In this document: piece after piece, positions 20,647 to 51,787 of the stretch
How positions within the stretch are numbered: position 1 is the stretch's first letter
Layout: each line of letters opens with the position of its first letter
From: Lytechinus pictus
Taxonomy: Eukaryota
NCBI RefSeq assembly: GCF_037042905.1
Contig: NC_087252.1
Location: 3,536,001-3,600,000 of the forward strand
Length of the DNA: 64,000 bases
Direction of reading: 5' to 3'
Made by a program: the position numbers and the translations under genes
The notes under the pieces: model-generated
What the model was told of the DNA's origin: nothing
The model's database searches: none
The model's input: the letters and a program-made list of their open reading frames with translations, nothing else

Positions 20647-20736
20647 TGTAAGTTGCAAAGCATAAGAAAAACTGATTCTCGAGACCGTGTTTTAGTGATA
20701 ACCCTGGCAGCAGGAGTCTGAATTCGGTGCAATCTA

Positions 20737-25476: not shown

Positions 25477-25484
25477 ATAAAAGC
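25477..25484 (-). CDS. Orphaned last 8 nt (GCT TTT AT) of the CYP K-helix exon, followed by its splice donor
   Basis: Removing 25487-51574 and one TSD copy restores ...CCT CCA GCT TTT AT|gtaggt, which joins T GCC AAC AGA to give ETLRMFPPAFIANRVC. Confidence 0.85.
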
Positions 25485-25499
25485 TGCCCTTACAAAAAT

Positions 25500-26380
25500 G
25501 TCCTGTGGTAATACCATATAATTACCATAGGACTGTACCACACGATTACCACATATATTGTTGTGTGGTAATGCTATGTCTTTATGTCCTGTGGTATTGT
25601 GTGGTAATGTGTGGTAATGTCGTGTGGTATTGTCCTGTGGTAAATTGGAACATTTACCACACAACATTACCACAGGAATACCACATGAATGGATTAATAT
25701 ATGGTAACATTTACCACACAAGGGATTAATTTATGGTAACAATTTTTACCACATACCATTTACCACATAGATTATCACACGACATTTACCACACCATTTA
25801 CCACACACCAGTTACGACATGCATTACCACACACCATTTACCACACAAATTACCTCACATTTTACCACACACCAGTTACCACACGCGTTACCACACATCA
25901 TTTACCACACGAATTACCTCATATTTTACCACATGCCTTACCACACAAATTACCTCACATTTTACCACACACCGGTTACCACACGCGTTACCACACATAA
26001 TTTACCACACAAATTACCTCATATTTTACCACATGCCTTACCACACAAATTACGTCACATTTTACCACACACCGGTTACCACATGCATTACTACACACGA
26101 TTTACCACACACGTTACCACATACACTACCACACACCAGTTACATAACTGGTGTGTGGTAATGCATGTGGTAACTGGTGTGTGGTAAAATATGAGGTAAT
26201 TCGTGTGGTAAATGGTGTGTGGTAAACACTAACCAGTTACCACACATATTGTACATAATACACATAATACCATGCATCAGAGTCATTACCCAAAATGTGT
26301 GTGGTAACTAGATGTGTGATAACTGATGCATGATAATGTATGTTGCAACTGGTGTGTTGCAATGTGTGTGGTAACTGGTT
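25500..26380. repeat. Left subterminal repeat array of element A (TACCACAC, both orientations)
   Basis: Dense TTACCACAC/GTGTGGTAA motifs. Confidence 0.9.
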
Positions 26381-27065
26381 AGATACATCACAGATCATGG
26401 GTATGATTTTGGTAGCAGTAGAATGTGTTCATGACCCTATGTACTTTTATAAGATTAAGAAAATACAACACCTTCAATGAACAGACAACAAATGATTTTA
26501 CAAGTGATATAGAAAGTACTGGTATTTAGCTCATAGAGTCATCAATTTACAATACTGGTTTAGATTTGCTATTGACAAAAATTGTGTAACAGCTGCTTTA
26601 CTGTACAAACAGTGTAACATAATAGTAACTATCAAAGAAATTAGTTACAGTGCATATAAATACTTTTAAAAAAGATACATTTCTTCTAAATACTTTAAAA
26701 AGTTACCTCAAAGGTTATCTGGCTTTTCAGCAAACCAAATTAACGACCATTGTAGTTTTTTTGCAGGTCACACATACAGAATGGACTGATTTACTCTTTG
26801 TTTTATGCTTAAAGACAAAAATGATTAAACTCTTAATCGTTTTTAAGAAAATGAACAAAACATAAGGATGTGTCTACAATAGGTAATATCATATAAGTAG
26901 CTGCGGCAAAGTGCACTGTACTCAAAATTGCGTATAACAAAATGCATAATTATCCCAAGTTTACTTCAAGGCTGAAGGGCAAGTAGAAATAGACGAGAGA
27001 TGATAATATGTATTTGGAGAAAATGAAAACTAGGACAATACCCTGGCATGTAATATCTGAATTAA

Positions 27066-27787
27066 AGGAAAATAACACCCAAAACATAATACCACATGAT
27101 ATTATTGATAAATACAGGACAATCAACATGAATCCACTCATACCCTAATCCAATTACGGAGTACCACCTTTTCAAAGTTGGCCTCTTACAGTATGGTTCG
27201 AAGTTTCTGGATGGAGGTCGCCATTTTCGCGGGGTTAGTTAGGAAATTATTACATCAGCAACGAACTACATCTCTAAACGTTTAGGCATTATATATTCTA
27301 TTTTATCAATAACAAATCAAATGTACAGATAAAACTCATAAAAATATTAGTTAAAATTTGTTTAATATATGGTAGGTTCAAAATACAATTTGATGAGTTT
27401 TAATGATAAGATTTACACCCCAATTTCCGCTGCCAATTTGTAAATCGTAGATTAGGGTGTAATTTTTATCATTAAAACTCATCAAGTCGTAATTTGAACC
27501 TATCATATAATATTAAACAAATTTTAATTAATATTTTATGAGTTTTATCTGTACATTTGATTTATTATCGATGAAATAGAATATATAATGCCCAAACGTT
27601 TAGAGATGTAGTTCGTCGCTGACGGAATAATCCCCATCCATAGACTTTGTACCAGAAGATGCCAACTTTGAAAAGGTGGCACTCCATACTGGGACATCGG
27701 ATTGGGGGTATATGAGTGGATTCATTTTCATTGTCCTGTATTTATCAATGGTATCATGTGGTATTATATTTTGGGTTTTATTTTCCT
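27066..27787. mobile_element. Palindromic Kolobok-like MITE
   Basis: TTAA|AGGAAAATAACACCC...GGGTTTTATTTTTCCT|TTAA; the two halves are inverted copies about a centre near 27435. Confidence 0.85.
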
Positions 27788-27867
27788 TTAAGATATTGTA
27801 CTGGTTTATATCATGGCATTACAAAGTTCATCTGTAGTGCACACTGTGTCAAGTGCACAAACGTATT

Positions 27868-28159
27868 CATGGTTCCCACAAAAATTTGAAAACAGAATTC
27901 CATGACCTCTCCATGACTAAATTGCTGCTTTCCATGACTTAATTCCTTTCTGGCACAGTTTACAAAATCAGACATGTTATGATCATGAACACCAATTATA
28001 ATAGTAGAGTACAATCACAGAGTATGAGAGTTGTGAGACATAAAAAACTAGAAAGCTGTCATAGCCAAGAGGTAAATGCAATTCCGTGACTTTTCACATA
28101 TCCCTGACTTTCCATGACCAATTTTTTTCCAGGATTTTCCATGACTGTGGGAACCCTGT
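27868..28159. mobile_element. hAT-like MITE with CCATGAC subterminal motifs
   Basis: CATGGTTCCCACA...TGTGGGAACCCTG termini. Confidence 0.6.
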
Positions 28160-28444
28160 AATAAAACTGCATTGACAGAGCTCTATCATTTTTAAAGTTA
28201 ATTTCAATTTCCTTCAAACATTTTATTCATCTCTTTTTGGTTGGACCTTGAATATAATACAATACAATGTTTTGGCAGGTCGTCTATAAAAGCATGTACA
28301 TCGTTAAAAAAGGCTTTTGGCAGGAACTTTTGGCAAGTAGTCAACAGTATCAATGCATGTAAATTTGGGTGAAAGAATCATACATGTACATTAATTCTTA
28401 AGAAAAGTTTGTGGTTGTATTACACTATCACTTAAACGTATTAA

Positions 28445-28817
28445 AAAGACAGCAGTTGCAGCAAACAATTATTTCATGAGAAATTGTCAAAATATTGTAC
28501 ATAATCTCTAGATCTGGTACATTAATGTAAGCTTGTATTTTTGTAAAATCACTAATTTTGAACTTAAAATTAATTATTTTGATGATCACTAACACAGAAA
28601 AGAACATGTGGGACAGGACAGTGTATTATGATTGATTTGAAAAATACCTGACATTGGATAGAATTACATGCTTATTTTGCTCATTTCTCAGCAATTACAC
28701 ATTTTCTTCCCGAGCTATAATTAATTATGGCACATGTCTTTTATATTTTGCTGGTAATTCTATTGGATTCTGTTCGAACTCATTTTAAGATTGTTACTAC
28801 AACTGGTAATTTATCTT
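28445..28817. mobile_element. Degenerate Kolobok-like MITE
   Basis: TTAA flanks; CAGTTGCAGCAAACAAT versus ATTGTTACTACAACTG near the two ends. Confidence 0.4.
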
Positions 28818-29559: not shown

Positions 29560-29975
29560 TCCAAGGTTGTTGACAACTGGAGGAGAGGAAGGAGCTAATT
29601 CCACGGCCTTGGAGCAGTAGTGGAGAAAGTTGCATCACCAGTAGCTAATTCGTAGGTGCGTAATGATCACAAAAATAAAAAGGCAAGTGCGCCTAGAATG
29701 AAAATGACGCACAAGGGATTCCTTATAAAACATGTAATCTGGATCTCTGTCAATGACTTTGAAAATCAGGAGACGGACACTGATGTTCATGTATATCCTT
29801 TCCTTGACTTGCAGCCAGCGAAGTTGGCGTATGGCAAATGGCACAATAGATGCAGCATTCTGTACTATATGCAGTCAGTCCAGATCGCCCTAATTCAAGC
29901 ACGAAGAGCATTACAATAGTCCAGTTTAGATAGCGCTAAACCATGGACTGCTTTGTGGCAAGTAGAAATATAAAA
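29560..29975 (-). mobile_element. Decayed L2 LINE fragment
   Basis: AVHGLALSKLDYCNAL and RQLRWLQVKERI...LLIFK resemble the L2 motifs SRLDYCN and LHWLPV.RI.FK. Confidence 0.7.
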
Positions 29976-31394: not shown

Positions 31395-33635
31395 GTGCCC
31401 TAAGATTGCGCACATCCGAATCTGCGCGATTCTGATAATGGAAGATACGCAACGACTCCAAACAAAAAATAAACTTTACACCTGAAAGAGCCTACTGTAC
31501 TTAGTCTTACCTACTGCCCGATGCCTCCTGACATGTAGAGCAACAACAAAGGACCTCCACTCCTGGCGGCCAGTGGTTCTGGGCCGTCTTCTGGAAACTC
31601 CCCCGGGCTAGGTCATATTCACCGACTTCATCTCCTCCTCAAATGTGATGCCAGGACAAGTAGTTTTGGGTCTCCCTCTCTTTCTCCTGGAATGTCATAA
31701 ACAGATCTATTCATAAAAAATCTGACTTAAAATGGTTGGAAAATAATGAATTTAGGGCATTGGCAAGAGTTCCATATGCAACCCCACTAAAATTGAAAAT
31801 AAAAACATGAAGAAGGTTCAGAATAATATATCTAGCACAATATAGAACATATATGATGGGGTAGTGGATAGTACTAGGAGTGGAAATACATACTAAAATA
31901 TGGCTTTATTCCGTCAAATTTCGAGCATGTATGGATGTATCTAGTGTGTGTAATTGTCCATAGACATCGGTTTATTTACTCAAGGGTCTGTGAGTCAAGT
32001 CTAGGCGAACTATTGGCTGATAATCGTTAAAATACCCCTTCCGGCATCAGCACTTCTTGCTAGCATAGCAGGAACAGGTCTTGACTGCAAATAAAACGAG
32101 GTGATCTCAAGTCCCAACTAAGGTGCCAAAACAAGGGTAAAAAAATTATAGAAAAATCTGAAGTGAACGAACTGGAATGGAATTAAGTCTCAACAATCTT
32201 ATTTTTTATCATGTTGGTGGGGGGTACATTGGAATTGCATATGGAATTCTTTCCAGGGCATTTCATGTGACGTCCTCAAAATGCAGCCTCTGTGACTGTG
32301 CTTTCTTATCGAAATCTTCGCATCATGTGAATAAGTGCGCAGACATCGGCCACTATTAGTATTACCCAGTTGTTGTGTGTCCAGACAGGTTGTGTGTCTG
32401 GACGATCAATTTTAGAAAGTCATTTGGAAAAAAAGCAAAGTTCCATCAATTTTTAGTACAAATTATTAGGAAATATTATAAAGAACAAAATAGAAGATGA
32501 TAACAAGTATCGAATTCATATTTTTAGTGTAATCCAAAGATAAAAGGAAGGCTTCAAAAAGATAAAACTGTCCGGACACCCGACCCCCATCCTACCAGCA
32601 ACGTTCTCGCCAGTGTAGAACACGCGTCGCATGCGACACATGTAAATTCCACAAGCTCTATATGCGTCACGGGCAAAAAAAAATCATAAAAAGTGGGGAA
32701 AAGTCATCGGAAATAATTGTTGCATCATTCATCATCAATCCTCAAAAGTAAAGGATGTTTCAGAATCATTTCGGCAACAAACAAACTACGATCTTCTTAT
32801 TGATGACCGGAAAAATATCCATGCATAGAAACTGGCGCATTTCCACTTCCAGCCGGCTAGCCAGCCAGCCAAGCCTGAGCTGAGCAGCCACACTAGCCCG
32901 CGTTGCCAGCGCGCCTAGCTGAGCTGGACATGCATGCTATACGCCACAATGCATGTTAAACTGAATTGTCCGCGGTGCGACCCGGGTCCGACGTAGCCTT
33001 TCATTTTTACATGATAGTGATACCGTTTCCCGATAGTTATCAAGAAATTTTTATCATAAAATGAATTGTTCCACATAATTTTCCCGCTAATTTCTAAGTA
33101 ATATTCTTAACGTTCATTCTCAATTTCTCATGTCATTCTGATCTGCTGTCGGGCTACCGTACCAGTATGATGGTGGGCCCTAAGTCTGCGCACCTAACAA
33201 TTTGAGTTAAGATTTAACATGAATTTCTTCTTATTTCACAAAATCTTTTGGATAATAATGTTCCTTATATTATTGAGAGTAAGTATACCAAATTTCTCAT
33301 TAAAAAATGAAAGAAAATATAGGATTTTCTTGAAAAAACCTTGGGCAGTCATTTTCAGATTGAAAAAAAAAATGGTACCCCATGTCTGCGCACTCATTCA
33401 CTTTGCACACGATTCGGAGATTTTGATGAGAAAGGCTGTATTTTGAGGCCGTCACATGAAATGCCCTGAATTCATTATTTTTTCACCATTTTGAGTCGGA
33501 TTTTTTTATGAATACCTGTCTATGTATTGCATGTGTAAAGTTCGTGCTCGTTGCGTATCTTTTTTTACTAGAATCGCGCAGATACGCGGGTGCGCAGACT
33601 TGGGAGACCGCGCAGACATGGGGGAACTGACCATA
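31395..33635. mobile_element. Long-TIR non-autonomous DNA element inside A
   Basis: Inverted matches: 31395-31435 with 33570-33610, 32255-32290 with 33432-33468, and 32325-32352 with 33380-33402. Ends approximate; no TSD resolved. Confidence 0.65.
31497..31692 (-). mobile_element. RTE-clade LINE 3' fragment
   Basis: PGERERGRPKTT-like...EEEMKSVNMT...RQEWRSFVVALH, typical of the RTE ORF C-terminus, followed by a short TAAG-containing tail. Confidence 0.75.
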
Positions 33636-34009
33636 CCACTAACTTAATAATTTTGTTCAATCAAAATGCAAGTAAATGACCATGACTGGCCGAGATATTT
33701 TCCCAAGAAAATCAATTATTTCTCTTAATTTTTAATGAGACTTTTTGCACACTTACTCATCAGAATACAAGGAACATCATCAATTGAAAGATTTTGTAAA
33801 ATAACAGGAAATTCACGTTAAATCTAAACTCAAATCGTTTAGGTGTGCTGTGACTGTGTGCAGACTTGAGACCACCAGCCAGTGGTCCACATCACAGCAG
33901 CGAGCAGGCGCTCGGGCCCGGCCGAGCGCCCGGTTAGACAGGATGGGATTGCCAGTGTCATGTCATTTTCATTGACGAAATCTTTAGCTAGTTGCAAGCC
34001 GGGGCATTT

Positions 34010-34230
34010 AACAAACTACGAAAAGAAAATCATAGAAAATGGTTATCTAACTTACTGTTTAGCCTACTGCAAATGTCTTCGAAGTCGTCCACATCTAACC
34101 CGCATTCTTTAAGTAGTTGAATTATTAACGGCCTTCTTCGTCCCACTTCTCGATCGAGCTCAATAAACTGCAACGCAACGCAAACGGTATTCTTTTCAAA
34201 TGTTGGCGGTAAGTGCGCATGCGCAAGCCT
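34010..34230 (-). promoter_or_regulatory. Putative promoter and first non-coding exon of element A
   Basis: Palindrome TGCGCATGCGCA (NRF1/P3A2 consensus) at 34214-34225; donor ACA|GTAAGT at 34055; homologous to 42145-42360. Confidence 0.5.
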
Positions 34231-36291
34231 GTCGCCGCCCCCCCCCCCCCCGGCCCCCCCCCCCCAGGGTGACCAGATTTCATAAAATGAAATAAGGGAC
34301 AATCGAAAAAAGATCAACAAAGAAGGCTACACAGTGTTACACCTGTAAAAAACTTTAAAAAATTGGAAGGGAGGGCACAGTGAGCCACTGCAGTTTTTTC
34401 GCCCTTTTTTCGCCGTTTTGTGTGTTATCCCTTATAAAAAAAATTGAATGGTATACCATTGAAATACCATACACCATACACCATTGAAACACCATTGATA
34501 TACCATTGGAATACCATTCGCACAGCACCCATCATACACCAATGGTATACCATTCAAGCCCCAATGGTATACCATTCAAACTAATTTAAATAATTGGGAC
34601 GTTACTATTACCATATTCATGAGCACCATTTACCATTCATATACCATTGATCAAACACCATTCACCATTGATCTACCATGGCCACTATAGACAGGTTTAC
34701 CATTGACCACCATTCAGCCACCATTCACTGGCCTACCATTTACCATTCAGCCACCGTTCACTGGACACCATTGGTCTACCATTCACCTTACACCATTCAC
34801 CATTCGCCTACCATTCACCATACACCGTTGACCTACCATTCACCGTACACCATTCACGTACCATTCACCATACACCATTCGCCTACCATTCACCATACAC
34901 CGTACACCTACCATTCACCGTACACCATTCGCGTACCATTCACCATAAACCATTCGCCTACCATTCATCATACACCGTACACCTACCATTCACCGTACAC
35001 CATTCGCGTACCATTCACCTACCATTCACCATACACCGTTCACCATTGCCCTACCATTCACCATACACCATTGACCTACCATACATTGTACACCATTGGC
35101 CTACCATACACCGCACACCATTGACCTACCATTTACAGTTCACCATTGGCCTACCATACACCATTGACCTACCAATCACCGTACACCATTGGCTTACCAT
35201 ACACCGTTGACCTACCATTTACCGTACACCATTGGCCTACCGTTCACTGTACACCATTGTCATACCATACACTCTATACCATTGGTCAACCATTCAATTT
35301 ACACCATTGGCCATACGTTATAGACCACAAGTGTACTGTGAATGGTAGACCAATGGTTTACACTGAATGATAGACAGTAGACCAAAGGTGTACAATGTAT
35401 AGTAGGCCAATAAAGTACAGTGAATGGTATAGACCAATGGTGAACAGCATATATAGCTCGGGTTAATGGTAGGTTTGATAATGGATTAAGTATGCACAAG
35501 AAAAAAATGATGAAAACAGTTATTTCAAGAACGTCAAATGTTTTTACTATAAGAAGTTTAAGTACAGCATAAATGGAACACAGCATTCACAAGTATAGAC
35601 TTTATAATTAAAGCACATAAGTTATGAATATATATGACTTTGCTCCTTGTTGACATCTATACTCTGTCAATCTTGGTATCTAAAATAAACATGTATCAAG
35701 ACAGAGTTTAATTGAAAAACACAACAAATGAATAACATTTCCAAGAATAAACATGTTCTCTCTGATGGCTTTTTACGTGGATTGAGTACTTGGCAAAACC
35801 ACTGTTCTGCAAACAAACCTGATACTTGTAATACAATAACCTTGATTTTAAATCTGTTGTGTGTAATTGCTTTCACACAGCTACTTCAATGACATTAATA
35901 AAATATTTTTTTTACTAATAAGTTCAAGTACAAAAGAGTGGAACCCAGTATTGACAAGTACATGTATGGCATAAAAGCACCAGCATTATGAATACATGTG
36001 ACTGCACGACTCTACAAGAGGTCAATGATTGCACTCCACATAGATATTATGTTAATCTTCCTATAAACAAATCTAAATGTAAGACAGAGTTTGGACAACA
36101 AACTGATGAACACCAAATTTCGAAGATTAAACTCAAAATGTGTGATAGCCTTCACATGGCCAAATGATTAAAGGTAAAGAGTACCAAACTTAGAGGAAAT
36201 AAATATCCCCAAAAGGGGGGAAAATAGTACCCCCATAAAAATATAACCTAATATTTCTCTATTTTCTTTTCACCTAAAAGATATATCAAAC

Positions 36292-36860
36292 GGCGTGTTT
36301 CTACATAGAATCGTTAAAAGGTATTACCCGCGTAAGTATCCAGAATCCCGGAAAACTTTCCTGTAGAATTTTGTAGAAACAGACGCGATGCGGTTTATTG
36401 ATAAACTGCTTCAAGCAAAATATGGTTTCTCATAACCATCTCTGAGAGGTGGTTATTGCCATGTTAATCCGTTTAACTTTTCTGTAAAAACACACGGCAA
36501 AATAGCGTATCGTGTCTGGCGGAAGTGCTTAATCCCAAAAGTGCAATTTCGCAGTACATAAATTTGCACATTCTGGCCTTTTCGATCTCGCCAGCTGATC
36601 ATGCAACACGTATACCTGCTACATTGAGTGAGATCTACCACAAATTATGAAAATTTTCCTAAGAAGATGCAATTTTGGACATATGTACAATGCAACGTGA
36701 GGTTATAGGTTGAATTTTCCGATTTCCGCCGTATTTGCAATGCGAAAAGCGAGTTAATCAGATTATTCGGTTTGTAGAAGCAGGTTGGTTTAAGGGCGAT
36801 AAGGTTTTTCGAGTCCAGAAAAGATAAATCCTTTTTAATGATTTTCTGTAGAAACATGCC
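36292..36860. mobile_element. MITE, Harbinger-like
   Basis: GGCGTGTTTCTACATAGAATCGTTAAAAGG versus the reverse complement of the right end, GGCATGTTTCTACAGAAAATCATTAAAAAGG. Confidence 0.7.
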
Positions 36861-37894
36861 AAAAGTTTATCATAAATACATTAAAGATACATAAAGGAAT
36901 AAATAATATCTATATCAAAAATAGAATATATAGAATAATAAAGAATATATCATGAAAATAGAAAAAAAACAAGAAAAATAGCGACATCTTTTTTTAATAT
37001 TTTGCAAATCATATAGAAAATAATTCTTAGTAGCACATCTATTTTTTAACTATTTCCCATAGTTCAAATATACAAGATTCCCACTTATTTATTTTTTGTC
37101 TATTTTTTTGTTGTGTTGAATCAGATGAATAACTCAACTATGTGTGAGAAATAATATAATTTTTGTCTTACACAGTATATCAGTAGTCAATCGTAATTTT
37201 TTACAACCTAGCTTGGACAAAATTTGAATTCATATAATACAAAAAAATATATAAATTGGGATCTTGTATATTCATGAGGACTTGCAGAGAACAGTTTTAC
37301 CAAAAAATAACAACTTTAATTCGTCATAATTTCGTTAATCCTCATTCAATTTTGATGAAATTTTCAGTGTTTTTTTTTGTCTGATGTACTCTTTGAATTT
37401 AAATCACATAACTTTCAGTCTAGAGTACCTAGCCCTTCAATCAAATGGGTTGGACGACCGGTTACATTTTACATATAACATAGTAGAATGAAGGGTCCAT
37501 AGAAAGAAAGCATGAGGAAAGGGGAGATTTAGGTAGGAAGAGAATTAATCAGAAAAGCATAATGTTGACAATTTCGTTAAAATCTGATAACAAAGTCTTT
37601 GATTTGAAGGTTTAGCAACATTTTGGGAAAAATTACTGGAATGTGCACATGATCGTCAGGAATATGTGTTAGGCTTATGTTATAAAATGAAATCATAATA
37701 ATTTCATATTTTCGTACACGTGTGTATGATATGTCCCACGTAGCATAAAATGATTTCAAGCAATGCATGTGTTTACATTAAATAAATCTTCACTTCACTT
37801 TTTAGTTCTTGGAGGTCAAAATGTGAATAAACATGACTTCTTGTTATAAAATACAAAAGAACAAGTGGGAGTATGACATCAGCTTGTTAACTGT

Positions 37895-38010
37895 GGGTGC
37901 GTCGTGGTCTAGTGGTTCTGACTCTCACCTTTCAACAGAGTGTCGTGGGTTTGAATCCTAGCAATGGTGTTTTCCTTCAGAAACTGCGTACCCGGCAAGA
38001 TTAATTTCTT
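37895..38010 (+). mobile_element. tRNA-derived SINE head (truncated)
   Basis: GCGTCGTGGTCTAGTGGTTCTGACTCTC...GGTTTGAATCC, similar to the SINE at 24012. Confidence 0.65.
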
Positions 38011-38546
38011 GCAGCTGTAATAAGGAATATGGGATGAAAACAATGCAAAGGACAGTATGTCAGCTACGGGTTCAAAACATCAATGCTTGTCGTGCGTGCA
38101 AGCTTTCTTGAGAAATTGATATATTTTTCTAAAATATCGAGAAATTTGCATAATACACTACCCTTCAATTGAATAGTACCAATTAACAAATATCAACAAA
38201 ACATTTTGTACAATATAATAAAGAAATTCATGTTTAACCATAGATTAGCAGAAAATAACCCGTTATATTAATGGGAGGTTGCCCAAATGATGACAAATAC
38301 CATACCACATGCATACCTGGGGCCAAAGTGTCCACCCCCCCCCCGCCAGCATATTGATTTTTTTCCAGGGGGGGGTGTTAGAAAGGACGTGTAATCCTAT
38401 AAATGGGGATGACATTTGGTCTTTTTCAGCATTTTTACCATTCCTCACAAGTTGTTTTTTCAGCTATGCCACTGCAGGAGTACAATCTGTTTTATTTAAT
38501 GAAGCTTTGCAATTTTTTCCACTGAAGTGAATTCTTACACAATTAC

Positions 38547-38663
38547 CTTTCACAAACTCCAGTTGTTTTCTTGTAAACGGTTTTCTGTGTTCAACACCTG
38601 TATTTTCCTTCCCAGATAATCCTGGACCATCTACATTATCATCCAGTGTATCCGTCGTCCAAT
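38547..38663 (-). CDS. Putative internal coding exon of element C, product unknown
   Basis: TTTCATTTAAG acceptor, AAAG|GTAATT donor, 117 nt, phase 1-1, open frame WTTDTLDDNVDGPGLSGKENTGVEHRKPFTRKQLEFVK. Confidence 0.35.
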
Positions 38664-39180
38664 CTTAAATGAAATAAAATCAATTTGAGTGTTGGAAAAT
38701 ATGCATGTGCAGATAAAAACAAAAATATAATACTAATATAGTAAAACTTTCTTTAAGCTCCAAAATGCAATGATTCACTCATATACAGCATCATGATAAT
38801 TTTTATTTCAACATATGCAGCAAATTCACTTGAAAATATGTTTGAAATTGATGTCACAGAAATAAAATTCCCCCACCAAAGATTTTCTGTGTGACGTGTG
38901 TGTGCATGCTGGAAATATATAGATCAATATAACACAGTTACTCTGCTGCGTAACGTGTTTTGATCAGCAATCATGTAGATATGCAAGAGAAAATTATCTA
39001 ATAGAAAAAGAATGATCTGAAGTCATATTTCCAGAGCAGCAGTTTTCAAAAGGTAGGCCTAATCAATTAATTGATAACATTCAATATGATTTTCTTTTCT
39101 TGGTATTGACAATCACAGTAACGGATCCAGATGGGCACAATTGACCTGTGCCCCCCCCCCCCCTTGAGAGCAATAGTCAA

Positions 39181-39606
39181 TGGCCCGAATTCAAAAAGGT
39201 GGTTTTGAAAACCCCGGTTGAGTCTATGTTTTATGGAGATTTCCTGTATAAATTAAGCTTATTTACAGCGTATATCAAAATATGTCCAATGTTGATGCGC
39301 GCTTTTGTCACAGTGCGCCAAATTGACGCCTGTTGCCGTGGTTATCCACGCTATTTTAATCACGAGTCCACTGTTTTGAATTAATGAGTCCACTCTTCAA
39401 ACAGTGGACTCATGAATAAAATAGCATATCTAACCATGGTAACAGGCGTCAATTTGGCGCACTGCGACAAAAGCGCGCATCAGAATTGGACATTTTTTAT
39501 ACACGCGCCAGATACGTGCTAAATTAAGCGTAATTTATACAGGAAATCTGCATACACCATGGACTCAACCGTGGGTTTTCAAAACCACCTTTGTGAATTC
39601 GGGCCT
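39181..39606. mobile_element. Palindromic PIF/Harbinger-like MITE
   Basis: GGCCCGAATTCAAAAAGGTGGTTTTGAAAACCC...GGGTTTTCAAAACCACCTTTGTGAATTCGGGCC; inverted over almost its whole length. Confidence 0.85.
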
Positions 39607-39689
39607 ATGTGTTTAATGTAAATATGGCGTCTTTACACAAGTGTGTCCCTCCTTTTGAAAGTTACAGCAAATATTTCTAACGGAAATAT

Positions 39690-39865
39690 ATACCGTGTTT
39701 ACACTTAATCGGCTTTTTCATAACGTGTAAAACACGATTAACTTGCATCGGCTCGCGGTTCAGAATCAGCAATTTGCACCACCAAAGTAGTAGGTTCAGA
39801 ACCGCGAGCCGATGCAGAATCGGCTTTTTTACTACGTGTAAACAGAAAGCCGATTCTGCATCTGC
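39690..39865. mobile_element. Small inverted-repeat element
   Basis: TGCATCGGCTCGCGGTTC / GAACCGCGAGCCGATGCA and CGTGTTTACAC / CGTGTAAAC inverted pairs. Confidence 0.55.
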
Positions 39866-42144
39866 AATTGGTGCGCATTTCATTTACTTTACCATTGTGA
39901 CATAATTGTAAGCGCACGGATCCAGCGTTGTCTTTATTATGGCGTATTTTGTTGGTCAATACACAGGTCAATACACAGTATGCCCACCATTTTTCCAAAC
40001 ATCACGATCGGGAACGGCGGTATTTTGGCTCCATTCCCGATATTATCGTAATGGTGGGAGCCATGCCGGGGTGGAATTCAGAGACCAGTGAGTTGGGGGG
40101 ATTTTCCCCAGGCCAAGCCGGTCCGGGTTGAGAGCCAAAACAGCGAAGATCAGAAGCTGTTATGTCTCCGAAAAATACCAAATAAATACCAAGATAATGT
40201 GACCATTTACCACTATTCATGAACCAAGCTCATCTATTTTCTCGAATAATCTAACTTAATTCATCCTTTACATGAATTTCAGCCACTTTGAGCAGTGGAA
40301 ACAGCATTATTTTAGCTTTGATCTCGACGTCTTAGTTAAAATTCTTAGTCAGATTTTGCCAAACGAACGCAGAGGGCAGCAACACTGTTGACTTCATGTT
40401 TGCGCGTTGTAATCGCTAACTTCAGCAAATATCCAAATAAATATACGGTGGAGTGAGACCCTAAATCTGATAACTCGAATGATGAAATCATGGTGGAAGC
40501 CGGAATAAAGATGTTCCTGATGCTCAGTGAATTGATTCGGACAAATATTTAGGTTAAATTAGTTCGCTAACATCGCAGGGTACGAAAGTGCATTAGGGAT
40601 TAGCGGGGCCAGGTTTTTCTTAGGGCTGCAGCAGCGGTGTTGAGCGGTGGCTCCGAGTTCCGGGCCGATCCAGGACCCAGAATTTTTTTTGCTAAACCTT
40701 CCGGTCCGGGCTCAAGCCAGGTTATCTTTGCGGGCCCCAACATTAAACACTACGTTATCGTTCAAATTCTCAGTCAGACATCACTTTGCTTGGCTTTGCC
40801 ATTATTTATAAGGACTGAAGTTAGCGACCAAAAGATTTGCCTGCGGCAGTTTGCATGATTTGGTTACGAACTTCAGTCCATATCAAAATTACGGCAAAGC
40901 AACGCATGAGGATTCAAACAATGACGTAGAGATCGAAGCCGATAAACAGCTGTTCCCGATATTCGGAAAAGCGGTGGGCATATGGACATTCAAATGCAAT
41001 TCAGACTTGATATGACATTTGAGAACAACATTTGGTGGTGAATTTTGCTCGAAGTTGGTCGGTGCGAAATTAGCGCCCAATCCCACGGAAAAATCCCAAG
41101 GAAAAAATTCAGAAATTGTGATTTTAGTCAGCTGGCATGGCTGAGTTCAGATTAGTATAGGCCCTTTTTTGGGGGGGATACATTTACATATACTATGTAA
41201 ACTACGAATTTTGTTTACAAACGTCAAAAACTATGCCAATTTTTATATTTGAACAAATTATATCGTATTCATATGTAATAAATATTCTAAAAAACCTTAG
41301 GCCTAACCAAGAAGAAAATATCACATAACTCACAAATACCAAATCCCGCCATGTTTTCAGAACACTTCTTGATTTATCATGGAATATTTCTCTGCCTCAA
41401 TTGCTAAAATATGTTAATTCCAAACAGTTGTAGGTTTTCTCTGAATAATTGCAGTTTCTCTAGAAAGATTGAATAGGAATCGTTTGTCACTCTCTCCAGT
41501 CACAGTTCCGCAGACAAAGTGCACATTTTACCATTGAAATTGCATGCGCAATAAGTGGTGCGTAGCTTTTTAGGGCCTGCGTAGCCTTTAATGCTTTATT
41601 TTATGTTTTAAAATTTAGGACACCTTACCATGTTTCACCTTAATACTACCATGTCCATGTCATCTTAATTTACCAACATTATCTACCAACAACAACAAAT
41701 TATAGGCCTCATTCCAGAGCAATATTTTTCGGCAAGGTTTCCATTTCAGTGAAACAATGTCAATGTTGTGCAGTAACCAATGGCCTAATTGACACTTTGA
41801 CACTCAATGTCATGACAGTACTGCACTGTACAGCATTAATTTAACAAGTCATTCATTCATAAATTCATACCGCCGATATTCAGAGATGGTTTTGTAAAAC
41901 ATTGAAAATAGATATCAGGCCATACTAGCGAATTACTACTCAATGACAATAATGCTCGGCTCAGCTCACCTCAGCCTATACAAAGCATATTAACGCACCC
42001 CATAATCCATTTCGCCAGAGACAGGCGTGTCCCGGCCCGCGCCAACGGGGCAGTGGCGGTACGGTGGCAGTGAAACCCCGTGGCAGTACAACGACATCTA
42101 ACAGTAACACTAACGGTAACATTCTAGAAAATCAGGCCGAGCCA

Positions 42145-42365
42145 CTAACTACGAAAACAATATCAAAGAAAATTGTTATCTAACTTACTGTTTAGCGTAT
42201 TCTGCGAATGAATTTGAAGTCGTTGTCCGAATCTGACCTGTGTTCCTTTAGTTTATGATGAATTATAGACGGACTTCTGAACAGCAAAACAGTGGTTGAT
42301 CGGGTTCTTTTTTCAAATATTGCAATTGGCGGTTACATGCGTACGTGCGCGCGCGCGTGCGAGAA
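42145..42365 (-). promoter_or_regulatory. Putative promoter and first non-coding exon of element C
   Basis: Shares GTTATCTAACTTACTGTTTAGC and flanking blocks with 34010-34230; GC repeat upstream; donor at 42188. Confidence 0.5.
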
Positions 42366-43235
42366 CAATACTTACATACATAGAGCGAGCTAGCTAGCAG
42401 CGCAGCCAACACATCCCGATATTGGGGGGGGGGTAAATCAAGACCAAATCAGGGGGAGGGGGCTTCTTAGCCAAGATACATCCCGATATGGGGGAGGAGT
42501 GAATTGCATGTATAAGACCAAATCAGGGGTGTCTTTTTCTTGATTGGTTCTGGGTTGGCAATTAACCATGCAGTCAATTTTTGCCACTGCTTATCCTTTG
42601 AAAGGATCTATGAAAAAAGTAATTTTGCTCAATTTTTTTCTGTTCTATAATTCCATGTCTTTCTTTTTTTTCTTTCCATTGTCTTTTTTTTCTTTTTCCT
42701 TCTTTTTTTCTGTTCAGTCTTTCTTCTTTTCTTTGTCTTGGTCTTTTTCTTTTCTTTTTTTAAATTTATTTTTCTGTTTTTCGATATATATATTTTTTAC
42801 TTATTTCTTTTTTTCCTTTTCTCTCTTTGTTTAATTTCGCTTTTGTTTTGATTGCAATTGAGAATTTCGTTCATTAGATTTTTTTCTGTAACATATTGTA
42901 CTAGCCTGGCGGCAGGGAATTTTGATATACTGGGGGGGGGGGCAAGACAATAACAGACAAATCATTTCAATTAAGCAAGTAATGATCGGCCTAGAATAGC
43001 TCTCCTCTTTATAAACACCATCCATGAGTGAGAAAAAATAATTAAAACACAATTTGTAAAGAAAAAAAAAGAGGAACGGTTTATGATCAAAAGCAGTAGT
43101 AGCGATATATAAATTGGCCGGGAGGGGGCTTTGGTCGTTGCAGACCAAAATCAGGGTTTGCCGATGGGAATTTCAATAGGGGTTGGGGGAGGAAGACAAC
43201 CAACAGTGAATTCATTTTAAGCAAAATAATGACCT

Positions 43236-43452
43236 ATGGGACATTGCAAGAAACTTGCAATTGAACGCAAGTCAATTTCAAACTCCAAAATCAATTGAAA
43301 GTCTTACTTTTCATTGCAAACTTGCAACTGATTTATTGTTTCTTCCATCAATAAATCTAAAAATTGGTTTACTTTAGATGAAATTAGTCTATCACTTGTA
43401 AATTTGCAACCGAATTTTGGGATTGACTGCAAATATTTCCTTGCAACACCCC
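43236..43452. mobile_element. Harbinger-like MITE
   Basis: GGGACATTGCAAGAAA...TTCCTTGCAACACCCC termini. Confidence 0.55.
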
Positions 43453-46400
43453 ATAGCTCTCTTTATAAAAAGTGGCCATAATTAAATAAGAAAATTAATT
43501 TAAAAATAGAACAAAACTTTAAAGAAGGGGGGGGGGCGTTACATAAAAAAACTGTATACCGTACAGATAGGAGAGGTGGTGTGCCGTTCAAATTATACCA
43601 AGAAACAAAAAGAGAAAAGAAAGGATGGTGAAATGTACAATTTTCTATTTAGTACGATACACATCTTGTTCATGCTCTTTAAAACTTGCATGTTTTAATT
43701 TCAAGATTTTTACGGTAAATGATGATTATATTCTTCCCTTTCGGGAGCGGCTGTGAAATAATTTGTCCGTTGATATTAAGGTACAATAAAATCCTTTTTA
43801 TCAAATAAGATTTCATTGACTCCTTTTATTTTTGCACTCAATGCATCAGATATAAATTTAGAAGGTAATATGTACAATTGTAAAATATAACAAATTAATA
43901 GTATTGTATTTTAAGCACTGGTTCAATGATATTTAAACACATATAGGCCTTTTACTTAATAAAGACAAAGACAATTTAAAAGAATGCAACAGACCATGTT
44001 TGCCATCATGAGCGAATGGGCCTGATTTGGGGAAGCTGCTCGCATAAAAGTCACAACTCAAAAATTTTAATAATTCTAATTTTTAATCTTTGATTTTTTT
44101 TTCTTTAAATCTTCGGAATTATGTTATTGGGTAATGCAATTGGGCATACCATTCACCATTAACATAAATAGCATTCATTAGGCACACACCGCTAAGCCAC
44201 AATTGCGTTACAATTATCCAACAACTATCCATTAATTATACCACTATATAGGCACATGCTACTGAGACACCATATTGGGCATATGGTATACCATTACACA
44301 TATACCACTGAGACTATTGGACACCACTGAGACACCATTGGGTTTATGGTATACCATTCACCATACCAATCATATCATTATAGAGGCACATACTACTGAG
44401 ACACCATTGAATACGACTGAGACACCATTGGGTATATGGTATACCATTCACCATACCAATCATACCATTAGAGGCACATATACTACTGAGAGTCTGAGAC
44501 ACCATTGTATACCACTGAGACACCATTGGGTATGGTATACCATTCATCATACCAATCATACCATTAGAGGCACATACTACTGAGACACCATTGTATACCA
44601 CTGAGACACCATTGGTATATGGTATACCATTCACCATACAAATCATACCATTAGAGGCACATACTACTGAGACACCATTGAATACCACTGAGACACCATT
44701 GGGTATATGGTATACCATTCATCATACCAATCATACCATTAGAGGCACATACTACTGAGACACCATTGTACACCACTGAGACACCATTGGGTATGGTATA
44801 CCATTCATCATACCAATCATACCATTAGACACATACCACTGAGACACCATTGGGTATATGGTATACCATTTACCATTAAATAAACTACCAATTACCATTA
44901 AGAACTTACCATTGAAACACCACTTAAATACCATTCGCGTACCATTTACCATTCAGATCACCATTCAACTACCATAAACTACCACTTACCATTAAGAACT
45001 TACCATTGAAACACCAATTAAATACCATTCGCGTACCATTTACCATTCAGATCACCATTCAACTACCATTCGCCACCATTCAAATACCATTGGCGATTTT
45101 TATAAGGGATAACCTATGGGAAATTCAAAGTTGCAGTTTTTTCGCCGTTTTGAAAACGGCTAGAAAAGGGCGAAGAAAGGGAGAATTTTTGGAGAAAAAA
45201 CGGCCAAAAAACGGCTACATTAGGTTTCCTATGTAAACATTGAATTATTATGGAGTGCCATCATTGTTCAATATAAGCGGAGCTATTGATTTCCCCATGA
45301 AAACGGCGAGAAAACGGCGAATGTTAAGGACAAGGATCCTGTTAGAGGAGTGAAGATACTGAGAGAAAACGGCTAATAAACGGAGAGAAAAGGGCTAGAA
45401 AACGGAGACAAAAGGGCGAATGGGTAGTAAGGTGTGTGTTGCATAAAAGGGAGAGAAAAGGGCGAGAAAACGGAGACAAAAGGGCGAATGGGTATAAGGC
45501 GTGCAGTGCATAAACGGAGAGAAAATTGTGAATGGGTCCCAAGGAGTGCATTGCTCGAAAGGGAGAGAAAGTGGCGGGACAACGGAGAGAAAAGGGCAGA
45601 TGAGTAGTAAGAGGTGAGAGCATGAAACAGAAAAAAAGGTTAGAAAAAAAAAGAAAAGGGCGAATGGGTAGTACGAAGTGCATTGCATAAAATGGCAAAA
45701 AGAAATGTGAAAATGCGCGATATGCATTGAGAAAAAGTGACTATAAAACGTAGAATATATATTTGCAATTTTTCTGCCAACTTAAGATTTTCTGAAGAAC
45801 TCCTTTTGGAAATAAGCTCTAGTTTTCATGGGTAATATTTATTAATAATTCTCATTTCATTCATGTAAACAATTTTGTATATTACTTCCGGGGGGGGGTT
45901 ACGCCTTCTTTCATAAATCTTATTTACATATTGTATAGGCCTACTACATTAATTGTTTTATTTCAACATTTTTTATATTTCATGTGGAATTTGATAAAAT
46001 GTCAATCAGATGAAAATAAAATTTAATTGAATTGGATTGAAACTTCTTTGAATACTTTATTTTTTACTCTTATTTTCCCTTCTTCATGGGCGGGAACCCG
46101 AGGGGGACGTGTCCCTCACTTTTTGGAAAGGGGGGCATAATATCAAATCCCCCTCTACTATTTGTGGTCTTTTATGATGGAGAACAATAAATCATTCAAA
46201 GTCGAATGTAGTTAAAGAGCTTAAATTTGCCCTATTTACTAAAAAAATGCAAAATTTCTCACGCCGAATATTGGCACGCAGGTTGTCAGGGAAGTAATCT
46301 ACAAAATTGTATCGTAATTTGTTTCATGCAAATCGCTATTAAGTAATTATGCTAATTCATGCGTAATTAGTAGGCAAAATCATACTTTTTCCTCTAACTC

Positions 46401-49184
46401 CCTTTATAAAGTTTAGAATGTTCTATTTTTTTTTTGTATAAGAACTCTTTGTCTACATGAACAAAATTGTGATATCAGATCAATTTCTTATGTCTTATTG
46501 TTTTTTGCAATTCCGTATGTATTTCTTTTGTTTTTTACTTTTTGTTTTTCATTATTTTTTCAATTAAATTTGTTTGGGACTCTTCTGACAGAGCTGCCAA
46601 CCGTAACGTTTTTTTGTTTTTTCAGCTTTTGTTTTGAGTGAAAATAAGTCTTCTCGTGTTCGCACCGATAACAAGAAGACAAGACAATGGGAATAGAGAT
46701 GGTGTGATGCCGCGATGTTCATTTTATTAAAGTTTGACAATGTTTCACCTTCAAATTTTATTTGTTTCTAAAACATTTTAGTTTTCTAACAATTTTTAAA
46801 TATATTATAAAAAAGACAAATATCAGTAAGATTTTTTTGTTAGATGATTACATTTGTTTTGTTTGCTTGAAGCTTAAATTTTTGTTTCCTCTGTAATTCT
46901 TTCTTCATTTCTTTCTTTATTGCTTTCTTTCGTTCATTTTCTTTCTTTTCTATCTTTTTTCTTCATCCTTTCTTCTATCCTTCCTGCTTGTTTTTTTTTG
47001 TTCTATCTTATTTCAAATCTTTCCTAGCTTTCTTTCCTGATCCTTTTTTTCTTCCCTTCCTTCCTTTTCTTACTTTCCTTTTATTTCCTTTCTTCTTTCT
47101 TTCCTTATTTTCTTTTTGGTTCCCTTCCTCTCCTCTTCTCTTTTCATTCTTTCTGTCATTCCATCCTTTCTTTCATTCTTTTCTTGCTTTCACTCTCGCA
47201 TGATAATGCGAAAGGCACTTTTCATGTTCCTGATGCTGCAGTCACATTTCCACTACCGCGGCTATGGCGAGTCGAAAACAGCCGTTTTATTAATGTGTAG
47301 ATGGTACAAAAAAGTCTTAACGGATGTTTTTGACCCGCCATAATTAAGGGAAATGTGACTGGGCCATTGGTCATGTAAGTAGTATCCAACAAACCACTTC
47401 GATATATTTTAATTCTTGGGGAGGCATACATCAGCCTCCATGATGTCATGAGCTGGTTCGATCTCGTTGATATATTGGTCAAAACTGTGTTTTATAGTGT
47501 TAAAATGCACGTGAGCTACTTCGTTTTATAGGAAAGATAACTTTTAAAATGTATAACAGAAGCTTTGGAGTGAATGCCCTAGCTGCATGTTGCGACTTCA
47601 ATGGGGTCAATTAATTACACGTCTCGCACGTTTTGTGAACAATGGAAGGTGTGAATGAAGGTGTGAAGATTGCAGTGAACACCTAACAATAGGAAGAATC
47701 TGTTTCAATTTAAGTTACGCAATGATCACTTGTGATCTCTCGTTGTGTTTCTTCAACCCGGATGAATCCCCCAAACCACATTGTCCAATCACGGACCTAC
47801 TACAATAGTCAGCGTTTGTGAAAACGGAATGATAATCGAGGATGATAGTGTATTTTTGATGTAATTAAATAATGATAGTGGTGATAATGAAGGGGGATAA
47901 AGAGGAAGAAGAGGACGAGAATGATGGTGGTGGTAATGATTTTGATGGCGGTGATGATGATGACGATAACATAATTATTTTTTTTCTTGATAAACATATT
48001 GTGTGTGTAAATTTATAAAAAAGGAGGAAATTTTCTTTTTAAGAATTATGATATAAAAAGGACAAAGGACAAAGAAAAAAGATTAGACTTATATTATAAT
48101 TTCTGAAACAACTGGGTCTGGAAAAAAGACTTTTTCTCGAAAGGGTGCGGCCATTCCCACTTCGCAAACGCAAACGATCGTAACAAGCCCAAGATAAAGA
48201 AAATAATACAGTACAGTATAATTGAATACATTTAGCACATTGCAGCATCTTTCCAAGAGAAAAATGATGAAAAAAAAATCATATTTATGAAGTATCAATT
48301 TTCTAAACATAACAAAATACGGTGAAAATGAATTAATTATAGATTTTTGTTAATTCTCTTATGACAGCAGAAAACACGTGTTTGGTATACGAACCACAAG
48401 TGACAAAAGATTTCACACGCGAAGAGGGGCGAAATCGGAAGCTGATAATTTTTTTTTCAGATATAGGCCGATTGATTTCAGCCATTTTAAAATTCTTATT
48501 TTTAGTAGGTATATGTGATTACTTTATGGTGGAATTTTGATGAATTTTAAGAATAAGTTTGATATGATTGATGATTGAAAAAAACTGAAGATTGTTCGGT
48601 ATTATACACTACCATACATTACGGTAGTATGGATGTTATTCCAAGTTGTCTCAAGTACATGCACTCACCCGCTTGTGTGGTACAACATTATTGCTGATTT
48701 GTACTTGTTTAGTCCTATTTATTACTAGTTTTATTACTTTTTTGTGCCTTTCGTCATTTATTAGCAGTTTTGAAGGTTTTTTTTACCGATGGGGGTATTC
48801 ACCCTTATATTAGCCGTTTTGTAGCCGTTTTCCACAAGGGAGGTATTCGCCCTTCATTAGCCGTTTTGTAGCCGTTTTCCACAAGGAAGGTATTCGCCAT
48901 TTATTAGCCGTTTTGTAGCCGTTTCCCACAATGGAGGTATTCGCCCTTTATTAGCCGTTTTGTAGCCGTTTTCTCGAAGGGAGGTATTCACTATTTTATT
49001 CTGATGAAAATCATTGTTGCATACAGTTAGCTTTCCATAGTCGGTACACTTTTTTTGTCGCCGTTTTTTAGCCGTTTTCTAGCCCTTTTCTAGCCGTTTC
49101 CTATTGGGAAAAAGGGAGAAAAAACGGAGAAAAAACAGAGAAAAAACGGCGAATCACCCAAACCAGTCTGGCTCACTGTGGGGT

Positions 49185-49875
49185 GAACGAAAGAATGAAG
49201 GAAAGAAAGAAAAGGCGGAAGAAAAGAGATGAAAAGAGAAGAAAAAAAATTAATGAAGGAAAAAATAAAAAAAGAATAAAAGAAAGTTAGAATAAAAAAG
49301 AGAAAAAAAGTTTCCGCCATTCTTTGAATTTAATACAGAAAGAGAGAAAAAGAAAGAAATGGAAGAAGAATACATGTGTGAAAGACAAAATAAAGGAGAG
49401 AAAGAAAAAAAGTAAGAAAAAGGAGGAGGAAAGAAAGAATGAAGGAAAGAAAAATGTTTTCTTCATTCTTTGAAAGAAAGAAACAAAGAAAGAAGGAAAC
49501 AGTAAGGGAGGAGGGAAGGAAGAAATTAAGGGAGGGAGAGAAATAATAAGGGAAAGAATTATAAGGAAAAATAAAATAAAGAATGAAAGAAAGAGAGGGA
49601 GGAAGAATGAAGTGAGGAAGGAGTGAAAACATAATGGAAGTAGAGAAAGAATTAAAATAAAAAGGAGAGGAAGGGAGGGGAAGAAAAAAGTTGAAAGAAA
49701 GAATGGAGGAAATAAAAAAAGGAAATTTGATAAAGAAGACGGGTAAGAAAAAGGGAGGAAAAAAATGAACACAGAGAGAGAGAAAGGATCAGGAAAGGCA
49801 AATAGGAAATAGAGATAGATGGAACAAAAACGGGCAAGCAGGAAGGATAGAAGGATGAAGAAAGAAGGATAGAAA
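49185..49875. repeat. Polypurine (GA-rich) low-complexity tract inside the hAT element
   Basis: Almost only A and G; explains the Phe/Leu/Ser-rich minus-strand ORFs. Confidence 0.9.
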
Positions 49876-50589
49876 AGTTCAAACTTCAAGCAAAAAATTC
49901 CAATCATCTAACAAAAATCATAATGATATTTGGTGTTTTTAAAATATATTTTTAAAAAATGTTTTAGAAATGAATAAAATTTCAAAGTGATTCTTTTTTT
50001 ACTTAAAAATTAGATGAAACATCGCGGCATTATATAGAACAAGACTCAAAACGAAAGTTGAAACAACTAGATCTAGTTATGAAAACTCAATAACTTGTTC
50101 CTCCGATTACATCCCCAAATCAGTAATCTGAGAACCCATAATATAATTATACAAATTTCCCGCCGATTTTGTGATTATTTTGGCATGTTTCATTGTGTTT
50201 GGTGTAGAGAATCTGCTCCGATCCTACATGCCTTGCTAGTACTAGCCTGTCACACAAAGGCAGGAGGCCAGTTCGATTGGGTTAGCAAGAAAATCACCTT
50301 GCAAAAGTTTATTTATCGATTTTATTGTTGTCTCTGCTTCGTCATCTGTTGGTTATTTTAATGAAAATTCGTCACTTTTAAATATATTTTGTTCAATATT
50401 CTGAAATACGGGACAAATAGGCGTCCCGGGAAGGGTTTGTCGGGACGCCGGGACAAAGAAGCAAAATACGGGACAATCCCGGGAAATACGGAACGTCTGG
50501 TCACCCTGCCCCCCCTCCGGCGAATCAATTTTTAATTTTGATAGGGGGTGAGCTGAGGGGGGTCTAAGTTATGGGTGTGAAAACTTTTT

Positions 50590-51560
50590 TTGTGTGGTAT
50601 TTCTGATTTTCAACAGAAGGGCAATAACACACAAATACCACATATTTGAATTGACAGTACTATACAATGGGCTATGACGTAACATGCTTTCATGTGGTAA
50701 TTTTGATTTACCACAGCAGTATAATTCCACACAAATACCACATATTTGAATTGACACACAATGGCATCATGTGGTATTGCATTCATGCGGTAAGTTTGAT
50801 TTACCGCAGAGCATAACACCACAAAAATACCACATATTTGAATTTACATTACCACACAATGGGCTAATGTGGAAACATGCTTTCATATGTGGTAATTTTG
50901 ATTTACCACAGCAGTATAAAAATGCCACACAAATACCACATATTTGAATTTACGTTACCACACAATGGCATCATGAGGTAAAGCATTCATGTGGTAATTT
51001 TGTTTTACCACAGAAGTATACTTGCAATACACAAATACCATTACCACACAATGGCATCATGAGGTAACATGCATTCCTGTGGTAATTTTGATTTACCACA
51101 GAAATATAACAATACCACACATACCACATATTTGAATTTACATTACCACACAATGGCATCATGAGGTAACATGCATTCATGTGGTAATTTTGATTTACCA
51201 CAGAAATATAACAATACCACACAAATACCACATATTTGAATTTACATTACCACACAATGGCATCATGAGGTAACATGCATTCATGTGGTAATTTTGATTT
51301 ACCACAGAAATATAACAATACCACACAAATACCACATATTTGAATTTACATTACCACACAATGGCATATGAGGTAACATGCATTCATGTGGTAATTTTGA
51401 TTTACCACAGAAGTACCACATAGACAACAAATTACCACAGCCACCAGCTGACGTTACCACACAAGGATATGGAAAATTACCACAGATGTTCATGTGGTAA
51501 CCTACATTCATGTGGTAATTCGTGTGGTAAAGCCGGGTACCACACAGATATACCACACGA
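50590..51560. repeat. Right subterminal repeat array of element A, including a ~104-bp tandem unit
   Basis: TTACCACACAATGGCAT...ATTTGAATTTACA recurs at about 51041, 51143, 51248 and 51351. Confidence 0.9.
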
Positions 51561-51574
51561 CATTTTCGTAAGGG

Positions 51575-51787
51575 TGGAGGGAACATCCTGAGTGTCTCGC
51601 AGACGACCTTGTCCATGTACGGCATGGATGCAACAGAACTGTATCCCACAGAATCCCTGGAGGGGGTCATCTTGTCCACCTCATCGATGAGCTTCTCCTG
51701 GACATGAGAGTTCCTGGCTAATGCATAGAAGATGAACCCAAGGAGTGTGGTGGTCGTCTCGTAACCAGCAATGAAAAACGTTACAGC
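51575..51787 (-). CDS. Cytochrome P450 (clan 3, CYP3A-like), I/K-helix exon, interrupted by element A
   Basis: CCTCACAG acceptor, then AVTFFIAGYETTTTLLGFIFYALARNSHVQEKLIDEVDKMTPSRDSVGYSSVASMPYMDKVVCETLRMFPP (AGYETT and ExxR motifs). Upstream exons lie beyond the window. Confidence 0.95.

Follow-up and report, generated by a model that had tools for sequence, protein, structure and literature searches.

A putative CACTA-related transposon nest of 26 kb splits an exon of a CYP3-like P450 gene in Lytechinus pictus

The interrupted gene and its insertion site

The window analysed here, i.e., the whole stretch of 64,000 nucleotides from the sea urchin Lytechinus pictus, is free of any N and contains a 26,088-bp transposon, element A (25487–51574), which lies within exon 10 of a CYP3-like cytochrome P450 gene. 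Four CYP3-like genes stand in tandem on the minus strand of C8, and this gene is the last of them. Across its 13 exons the reading frame runs for 534 codons without a stop, and each of the 12 introns is bounded by GT and AG. The nine exons 1–9 lie outside the window (C8:3610821-3600479), and the others lie within it, all on the minus strand: the 5′ piece of exon 10 (51575–51787, 213 nt), which contains the I-helix and the ExxR motif; the displaced last 8 nt of exon 10 (25477–25484), followed by the GT donor; exon 11 with the PERF region (24484–24621); exon 12 (22638–22800) with the haem-binding cysteine, residue 475 of 534; and exon 13 (21230–21319), which includes the stop codon. The encoded protein has a full P450 domain, and its best solved relative is human CYP3A4 (E 6e-108). 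Matching proteins carry the database name 'cytochrome P450 3A-like', which expresses similarity only, and paralogue-type proteins are 55–58% identical to the protein of the interrupted gene.

Along the minus strand, the P450 frame runs past ETLRMFPP up to the right terminal inverted repeat (TIR) of element A, which breaks the gene after codon 402 of 534, and the last 8 nt of exon 10 and the GT donor sit beyond the left TIR. The two TIRs agree at 22 of 24 bases. The dinucleotide TG is present at both flanks (25485–25486 and 51575–51576) as a 2-bp target-site duplication (TSD), one copy of which forms the final two bases of the 5′ exon piece. Exon 11 starts at 24621 in a phase that matches the end of the split exon, and the equivalent donor position is found in the three tandem paralogues. 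The first-pass annotation of this DNA had described a 26-kb element that splits a CYP exon while leaving the CYP exons undamaged, and both descriptions hold, including the TIRs, the 2-bp TSD, the displaced 8 nt and the donor.

A second giant insertion is present in the same gene (51813–63973). It measures 12.2 kb, has long inverted ends, is flanked by a 6-bp TSD (AATTGG) and lies only 25 bp from the exon 10 acceptor, thereby extending intron 9 to 12.7 kb. It contains a 194-bp satellite and further nested foldbacks (54263–58500, 57166–58167).

Transcripts and alleles

Four of 23 public runs were examined over 51420–51900. In run X1 (study P1), a 1593-nt contig joins exon 9, exon 10, the displaced 8 nt and exon 11, as in an intact spliced mRNA. 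In run X5 (study P2), a 1218-nt contig likewise joins exon 9 to exon 10, and it then continues into element A to about 51383 (155 nt or more) with zero differences from the window. Neither X1 nor X5 is recorded as an RNA run; however, the 12.7-kb intron is skipped in both contigs, showing that they are transcripts. No intact joint is among the contigs listed for X5, of which three pieces are not displayed, and contigs cannot prove absence. Two raw RNA runs (X21 and X22), of which about 6% was read, gave almost no exon coverage and are uninformative either way. Both alleles exist, and the filled allele is transcribed. X5 and the assembly may come from the same source, so that the X5 contig speaks more against misassembly than for spread.

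Past exon 10, the read-through frame (51299–51574, minus strand) has 91 foreign codons and then a stop at 51301–51299, with transcription seen only to about 51383. One base ahead of this stop, at 51302, begins a donor-like GT site of phase 2. It is in phase with exon 11, and its GTAAAT hexamer is also used by intron 5 of the same gene. Poly(A)-like signals lie further into A, near 50536–50313.

An L. pictus database protein, P0001 (XP_054761058.1), reads uninterrupted through the insertion site; of 521 residues, 8 differ between it and this allele, which indicates that it derives from another haplotype. The proteins of L. variegatus are intact and 94–95% identical to the protein of this gene; polarised with them, the private changes beyond residue 30 number two in this allele vs. 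three in P0001. No sign of decay is seen in the coding sequence of this allele. The first-pass annotation had proposed either a null allele or a young pseudogene. A null allele agrees with the intact X1 mRNA and the intact P0001, and these two, together with the zero stops in 534 codons, rule out a fixed pseudogene; nor is it an old one. Two of the L. variegatus proteins, P0010 and P0011, are near-identical apart from the exon 10 region and the C-terminus; either this gene was recently duplicated or the two proteins come from different haplotypes of that species.

Element A and its family

The genome searches scored the best 40 candidates. The left 274 bp of element A match at 100% at 13 places in the genome, and 36 of 40 left ends of the family could be paired with a right end. 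These 36 paired copies comprise 30 of 6.5–13.1 kb, one of 15.6 kb and five, including the present one, of 23.7–39.2 kb, and the 12 others whose left end is identical all measure 10.5–12.1 kb. Both ends were examined in 16 further copies; all have a TSD of 2 bp, varied in sequence and never TTAA. Over 8399 gap-free columns, this copy differs from eight close sisters at 37–51 columns (0.44–0.61%), in support of the earlier claim of a young family, and the sisters differ among themselves at 15–48. The body of about 10.8 kb contains older repeat fragments that are common to all sisters, showing that this part of the element travels as a unit. These older repeats give only 69–85% DNA matches to unrelated loci, and a 78% foldback lies at 27062–27791.

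The two ends of element A carry dense subterminal arrays of TACCACA/TGTGGTA. The left TIR and array span 25487–26330, and the right array, made up of 102–104-bp units, spans 50590–51574 together with its TIR and is transcribed as read-through from exon 10. The motif occurs 43 times in the 844 bp of the left end and 41 times in the 985 bp of the right end, about 400-fold above the shuffled expectation at both (200 shuffles, mean 0.1, maximum 2), and is at background level mid-element.

One A-family copy (C7:10772128-10783839) lies between P450 exon matches at C7:10745198 and 10829947. Targeting of P450 genes by A was considered and rejected, as about 800 bp on each side of this copy contain no P450 match. 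A LINE (long interspersed element) remnant within A at 29638–29874 is not claimed: tblastn with the two LINE frames of the window, Pfam and the ESM Atlas all gave empty results.

The nested elements

The additional 15 kb or so of this A copy consists of an element C holding an element B, plus a miniature inverted-repeat transposable element (MITE). Element C (34376–49180) has CACAGTGAGCCA termini (CACAG ends) and a 3-bp TSD (GGG), and is 4.1 kb long without B. Element B (34429–45108, 10,680 bp) sits within C, 53 bp in from C's left end, and has CCCTTATAAAAA termini (CCC ends), a 2-bp TSD (AT) and ACCATT subterminal arrays. The MITE of about 470 bp (33168–33635) is flanked by a TA duplication and belongs to an abundant young family. 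C and B together make up 57% of element A. It had been claimed that the element carries many decayed inserts; the large ones, i.e., C, B and the MITE, are instead intact and young, with intact ends and TSDs and with relatives 99–100% identical at the ends.

Both C and the MITE are private to this A copy, their sites being cleanly empty in eight of eight close sisters; two copies of an older subfamily lack the anchors. The A/C junction was matched only here among the best 40 of 668 candidates, and the C/B junction only here among the best 40 of 100. The C family has a 3-bp TSD in 12 of 12 copies, and the B site is empty in seven of eight, the remaining one having no left end. For B, 12 other copies are identical over 272 bp, and a 2-bp TSD is present in all four copies with both ends found, of five examined. 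Relatives of the MITE are up to 100% identical (best 40 of 1566 candidates). All three inserts joined this A copy only once it had split from its sisters. Nesting is routine in the A family: four other copies longer than 20 kb carry different inserts, one of them B elsewhere without C, and four of the eight close sisters each have a private insert of 0.6–1.2 kb, none of which is shared. In a family member at C13:10372123-10399362, a complete B occupies a different position (TSD CG), so that B has entered A-family elements at least twice.

Using the genome's own transposase frames in tblastn, we found no transposase inside A, B, C or the four large A copies, and a Pfam scan of the internal frames of the element found a transposase in none of 10. 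A and B share one 135-bp segment at 77% identity (approximately 34010–34137 and 42144–42278), which ends at a donor-like site and is adjoined by a GC-rich promoter-like stretch. This segment is possibly a remnant first exon of the parent elements, for which an ESM Atlas search, with matches only under 0.9, gave no evidence.

Classification and a candidate autonomous partner

Animal CACTA-related elements (TRCs) are described, in the sections of DeMarco et al. (2006, PMC1636069) relied on here, as having CCC termini, 2-bp duplications and Transposase_21. The TIRs of element A start with CCC, its TSD is a variable 2 bp in this copy as in the 16 others, and it has the subterminal repeat arrays that characterise CACTA elements. 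Judged by these sequence features, A is best classed as a non-autonomous animal CACTA/TRC element. The genome contains 12 Transposase_21 matches. A 27.6-kb element at C8:25607893-25635502, with TIRs alike at 23 of 24 bases, a TT TSD, subterminal repeats and an 836-residue open frame, scored 29.5 bits against Transposase_21 in the genome search (cut-off 28.6), and the searched part of its frame is single-copy. Compared with its termini, the left end of A agrees at 11 of 11 and 21 of 24 positions, and the right end of A and the end of B each agree at 10 of 11. The Repbase rule for non-autonomous elements, as given in the cited part of PMC4455052, asks for the same TSD length and for termini with at most one mismatch over positions 1–11 to a classified element; the terminal matches and the shared TSD length thus bring A under this rule. 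We therefore regard the C8 element as a candidate autonomous partner of A. Within 10 kb of eight other transposase loci, no A-like end pair was found. The assignment of A to the CACTA/EnSpm type in the first-pass annotation is supported by the TSDs, the termini and the match to this Transposase_21-like element. A plant-type CACTA identity for A and B is rejected, as both have CCC ends and 2-bp TSDs rather than CACTA termini and a 3-bp TSD.

Element C, with CAC..GTG termini and a 3-bp TSD in all 12 copies, appears to fit CMC-type elements with a 3-bp TSD. A RAG/Transib identity, considered for its CACAGTG ends, is rejected: Transib/RAG-like elements have a 5-bp TSD, which was found in none of the 12 copies. 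In the CMC/CMCT comparison, Chapaev3 is presumably the name that applies to elements like C. CMC/CMCT elements have CAC termini and a 3-bp TSD, and correspond to EnSpm in Repbase usage, according to the portion of Kojima (2025, PMC12730594) drawn on here.

Elsewhere in the genome, near-identical (98.8–99.4%) Transposase_21 pairs occur at C1:26.46 Mb and C21:13.94 Mb, at C14:1.49 Mb and C13:28.96 Mb, and at C19:0.53 Mb and C2:18.86 Mb. These elements have long open frames, some with CCCAG ends, which suggests that the genome has several CACTA families that are both young and autonomous.

Proposed history and alternatives

The account that we favour, and that we judge on balance to be probable, is that of a young TRC element in an exon, a segregating null allele and a nest that most likely grew in place. 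On this account, A belongs to a young animal CACTA (TRC) family with a body of about 10.8 kb and is itself non-autonomous; a Transposase_21-type enzyme would mobilise it in trans by recognising the CCCTTAC ends and the subterminal arrays, with the C8 element as the candidate source. One copy inserted after codon 402, duplicating the 2 bp that are seen at its flanks. The filled allele is transcribed, spliced through exon 10 and then read into A, as is seen in one run, and the frame with its 91 foreign codons would give a product without the PERF region and the haem cysteine. A P450 cut before these is inactive, and thus the truncated product cannot be a P450. The allele segregates beside the intact alleles represented by one run and one database protein, and is probably tolerated because of the three adjoining tandem paralogues, although these are only 55–58% identical. 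The MITE, C and B landed in this A copy on its own terminal branch, as their absence from the sisters indicates, bringing it to 26 kb, most likely after the arrival of A at the site. What the locus presents is a real, young, segregating knock-out allele with a new element of a known transposon group. It is a fairly ordinary case; CACTA exon knock-outs and transposon nests are both well known.

The timing of the nest is where the strongest competing account departs. In that account, the MITE, C and B had entered A while it was still at an earlier location, and its last move carried all three tiers, 26 kb in total, into the exon, the donor having been excised or lying on another haplotype. The first-pass annotation had already proposed that the whole composite jumped recently as one unit, citing the intact exons. 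A gene dead for 0.25–0.3% of divergence is expected to gather only about 0.3 nonsense or splice changes, with a probability of none of 0.72–0.76, which small indels would lower somewhat. Intact exons are thus expected on either account, even had the gene been dead for the whole branch of this copy, and cannot date the jump of A. The first-pass annotation had also named another A copy with the same nested inserts as a check; no second nest-bearing copy was found among the best 40 candidates scored, which counts against the composite. The proposal does hold for the 10.8-kb body, which travels as one piece together with its older repeat fragments. The four private inserts in eight sisters, none of them shared, also speak against a hop of the whole nest, as does the fall of transposition frequency with element length. 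However, cut-and-paste transposition leaves no sister, so that the absence of a sister composite from a single haplotype is compatible with such a hop. Moreover, the ends of A are intact, with 8.9 kb and 2.4 kb between them and the inner elements, there is a 27.6-kb relative whose TIRs and TSD are intact, and the private amino-acid changes beyond residue 30 show no excess in this allele. We consider a last hop of the whole nest unlikely, though still a serious contender; growth in place is the order of events that we favour as likely.

Several points weigh against growth in place and, more broadly, against the account favoured here. B is 0.89% from the nearest of 19 sampled copies (range 0.89–2.0%), and C is about 1.6% or more from the nearest of 12. 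Both are therefore farther from their nearest sampled kin than A is from its own, showing that this haplotype lacks the donors of B and C, which either left by cut-and-paste or reside on other haplotypes. Such unseen donors would be usual here, in line with a hop of the whole nest, and the donor of A may also be unseen and could already have carried the nest; the genome searches, moreover, were limited in scope to the best 40 candidates. The read-through is known from one contig in one run, perhaps from the assembled stock, and a DNA read of the empty site was not seen. As to the proposed partner, the C8 frame scanned whole gives 27 bits (E 3e-6), under the cut-off, and a weak DUF4218 match too, and A and the C8 element show no internal homology apart from their ends and dispersed repeats common to both. 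The order of nesting can be at odds with the divergence among copies, so that neither the intact exons nor the missing sister composite dates a cut-and-paste insertion.

A bolder combination, in which the A family is transposing now via the 27.6-kb C8 element, the whole nest hopped very recently and the allele is revertible in the manner of En/Spm, through somatic excision or in-frame splicing at 51302, seems to us doubtful. If it were true, the locus would serve directly as a reporter of CACTA activity in a sea urchin, and the reversed age order would show that copy divergence cannot date insertions in such a genome.

A narrower proposal is that the allele leaks or reverts, either by splicing of the donor-like site at 51302 to exon 11, which would add about 90 residues in frame, or by precise somatic excision, as in maize dSpm alleles. 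The phase of this site, its position one base before the stop and its GTAAAT hexamer, shared with intron 5, are in keeping with such splicing, and the C8 element suggests that a possibly intact transposase exists. However, the X5 contig, which ends near 51383, contains no such joint, an exact removal of A by splicing lacks GT–AG boundaries, and a 90-residue insert just past the ExxR motif should ruin the fold. In addition, the X1 mRNA is more simply explained by an empty allele, P0001 representing another haplotype. A leaky or revertible allele is thus improbable.

That a repeat was mis-joined into the exon during assembly is very improbable indeed: although a long DNA read over both junctions was not seen, the exact 2-bp TSD and the in-phase 8-nt remainder, the RNA-type contig that spans the exon/TIR junction with zero differences and the exact TSD of every nested element all argue against it. 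A piggyBac derivation of A, suggested by the 5′-CCCTT-3′ TIR start that the cited part of bioRxiv 10.1101/2024.04.01.587621 associates with TTAA sites, has practically no standing and is ruled out by the TSD test, in which the duplications are 2 bp and variable and TTAA occurs in 0 of 17 A copies, the best terminal match being instead the Transposase_21-like element.

Other repeats in the window

Two young LINE copies lie downstream of the gene (1047–4217, minus strand; 15980–18941, plus strand). One of them has a 1056-residue open frame with endonuclease and reverse transcriptase, and the frame of the other is split in two. Repeat copies recognised by eye at 24830–25015 (intron 10) and 20500–20650 (downstream of the gene) are what we take to be tRNA-like SINEs (short interspersed elements).

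Significance and comparison with known systems

This genome carries a broken allele of a detoxification gene that is intact in other members of the species, and annotation and toxicology work on this sea urchin should therefore genotype the site. For the large gene-less CCC-ended elements there is now one particular candidate autonomous CACTA partner whose transposase frame is open, so that activity can be tested. The disagreement between nest order and copy divergence is a warning for the dating of similar nests. A literature search found no published account of this allele or family, most subscription journals and the Repbase entries having been outside the search.

In maize, En/Spm and the dSpm exon alleles provide a case of non-autonomous CACTA elements in exons, with subterminal arrays, read-through and a possible reversion through excision or leakage through cryptic splicing. 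The present allele shares with the dSpm alleles the exon insertion, the subterminal arrays and the read-through, whereas the plant elements have CACTA ends and 3-bp TSDs, and no leak or excision was seen here. Animal counterparts are SmTRC1 of Schistosoma mansoni and the TRCs of Tribolium and Aedes, which, as far as the cited part of PMC1636069 describes them, resemble A in their CCC termini, 2-bp TSD and near-end repeats. Many copies are without transposase in both, and the counterpart of their Transposase_21 would here be the borderline match in the presumed autonomous partner. However, we note differences between A and these animal TRCs as described there. First, A is 10.8 kb long (26 kb in this copy), whereas they measure 4.5–9 kb. 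Second, A has no transposase remnant. Third, its subterminal arrays are dense at both ends. Element C, in turn, is like the CMC/CMCT elements in the cited portion of PMC12730594, with CACAG ends and a 3-bp TSD in 12 of 12 copies. Finally, transposable-element insertions in and around alleles of xenobiotic-metabolising P450s, exons included, are documented in the cited part of Chen and Li (2007, PMC1852546); the cases given there concern small elements in insects, whereas here a CYP3-like gene of an echinoderm holds a nest of three tiers and 26 kb.

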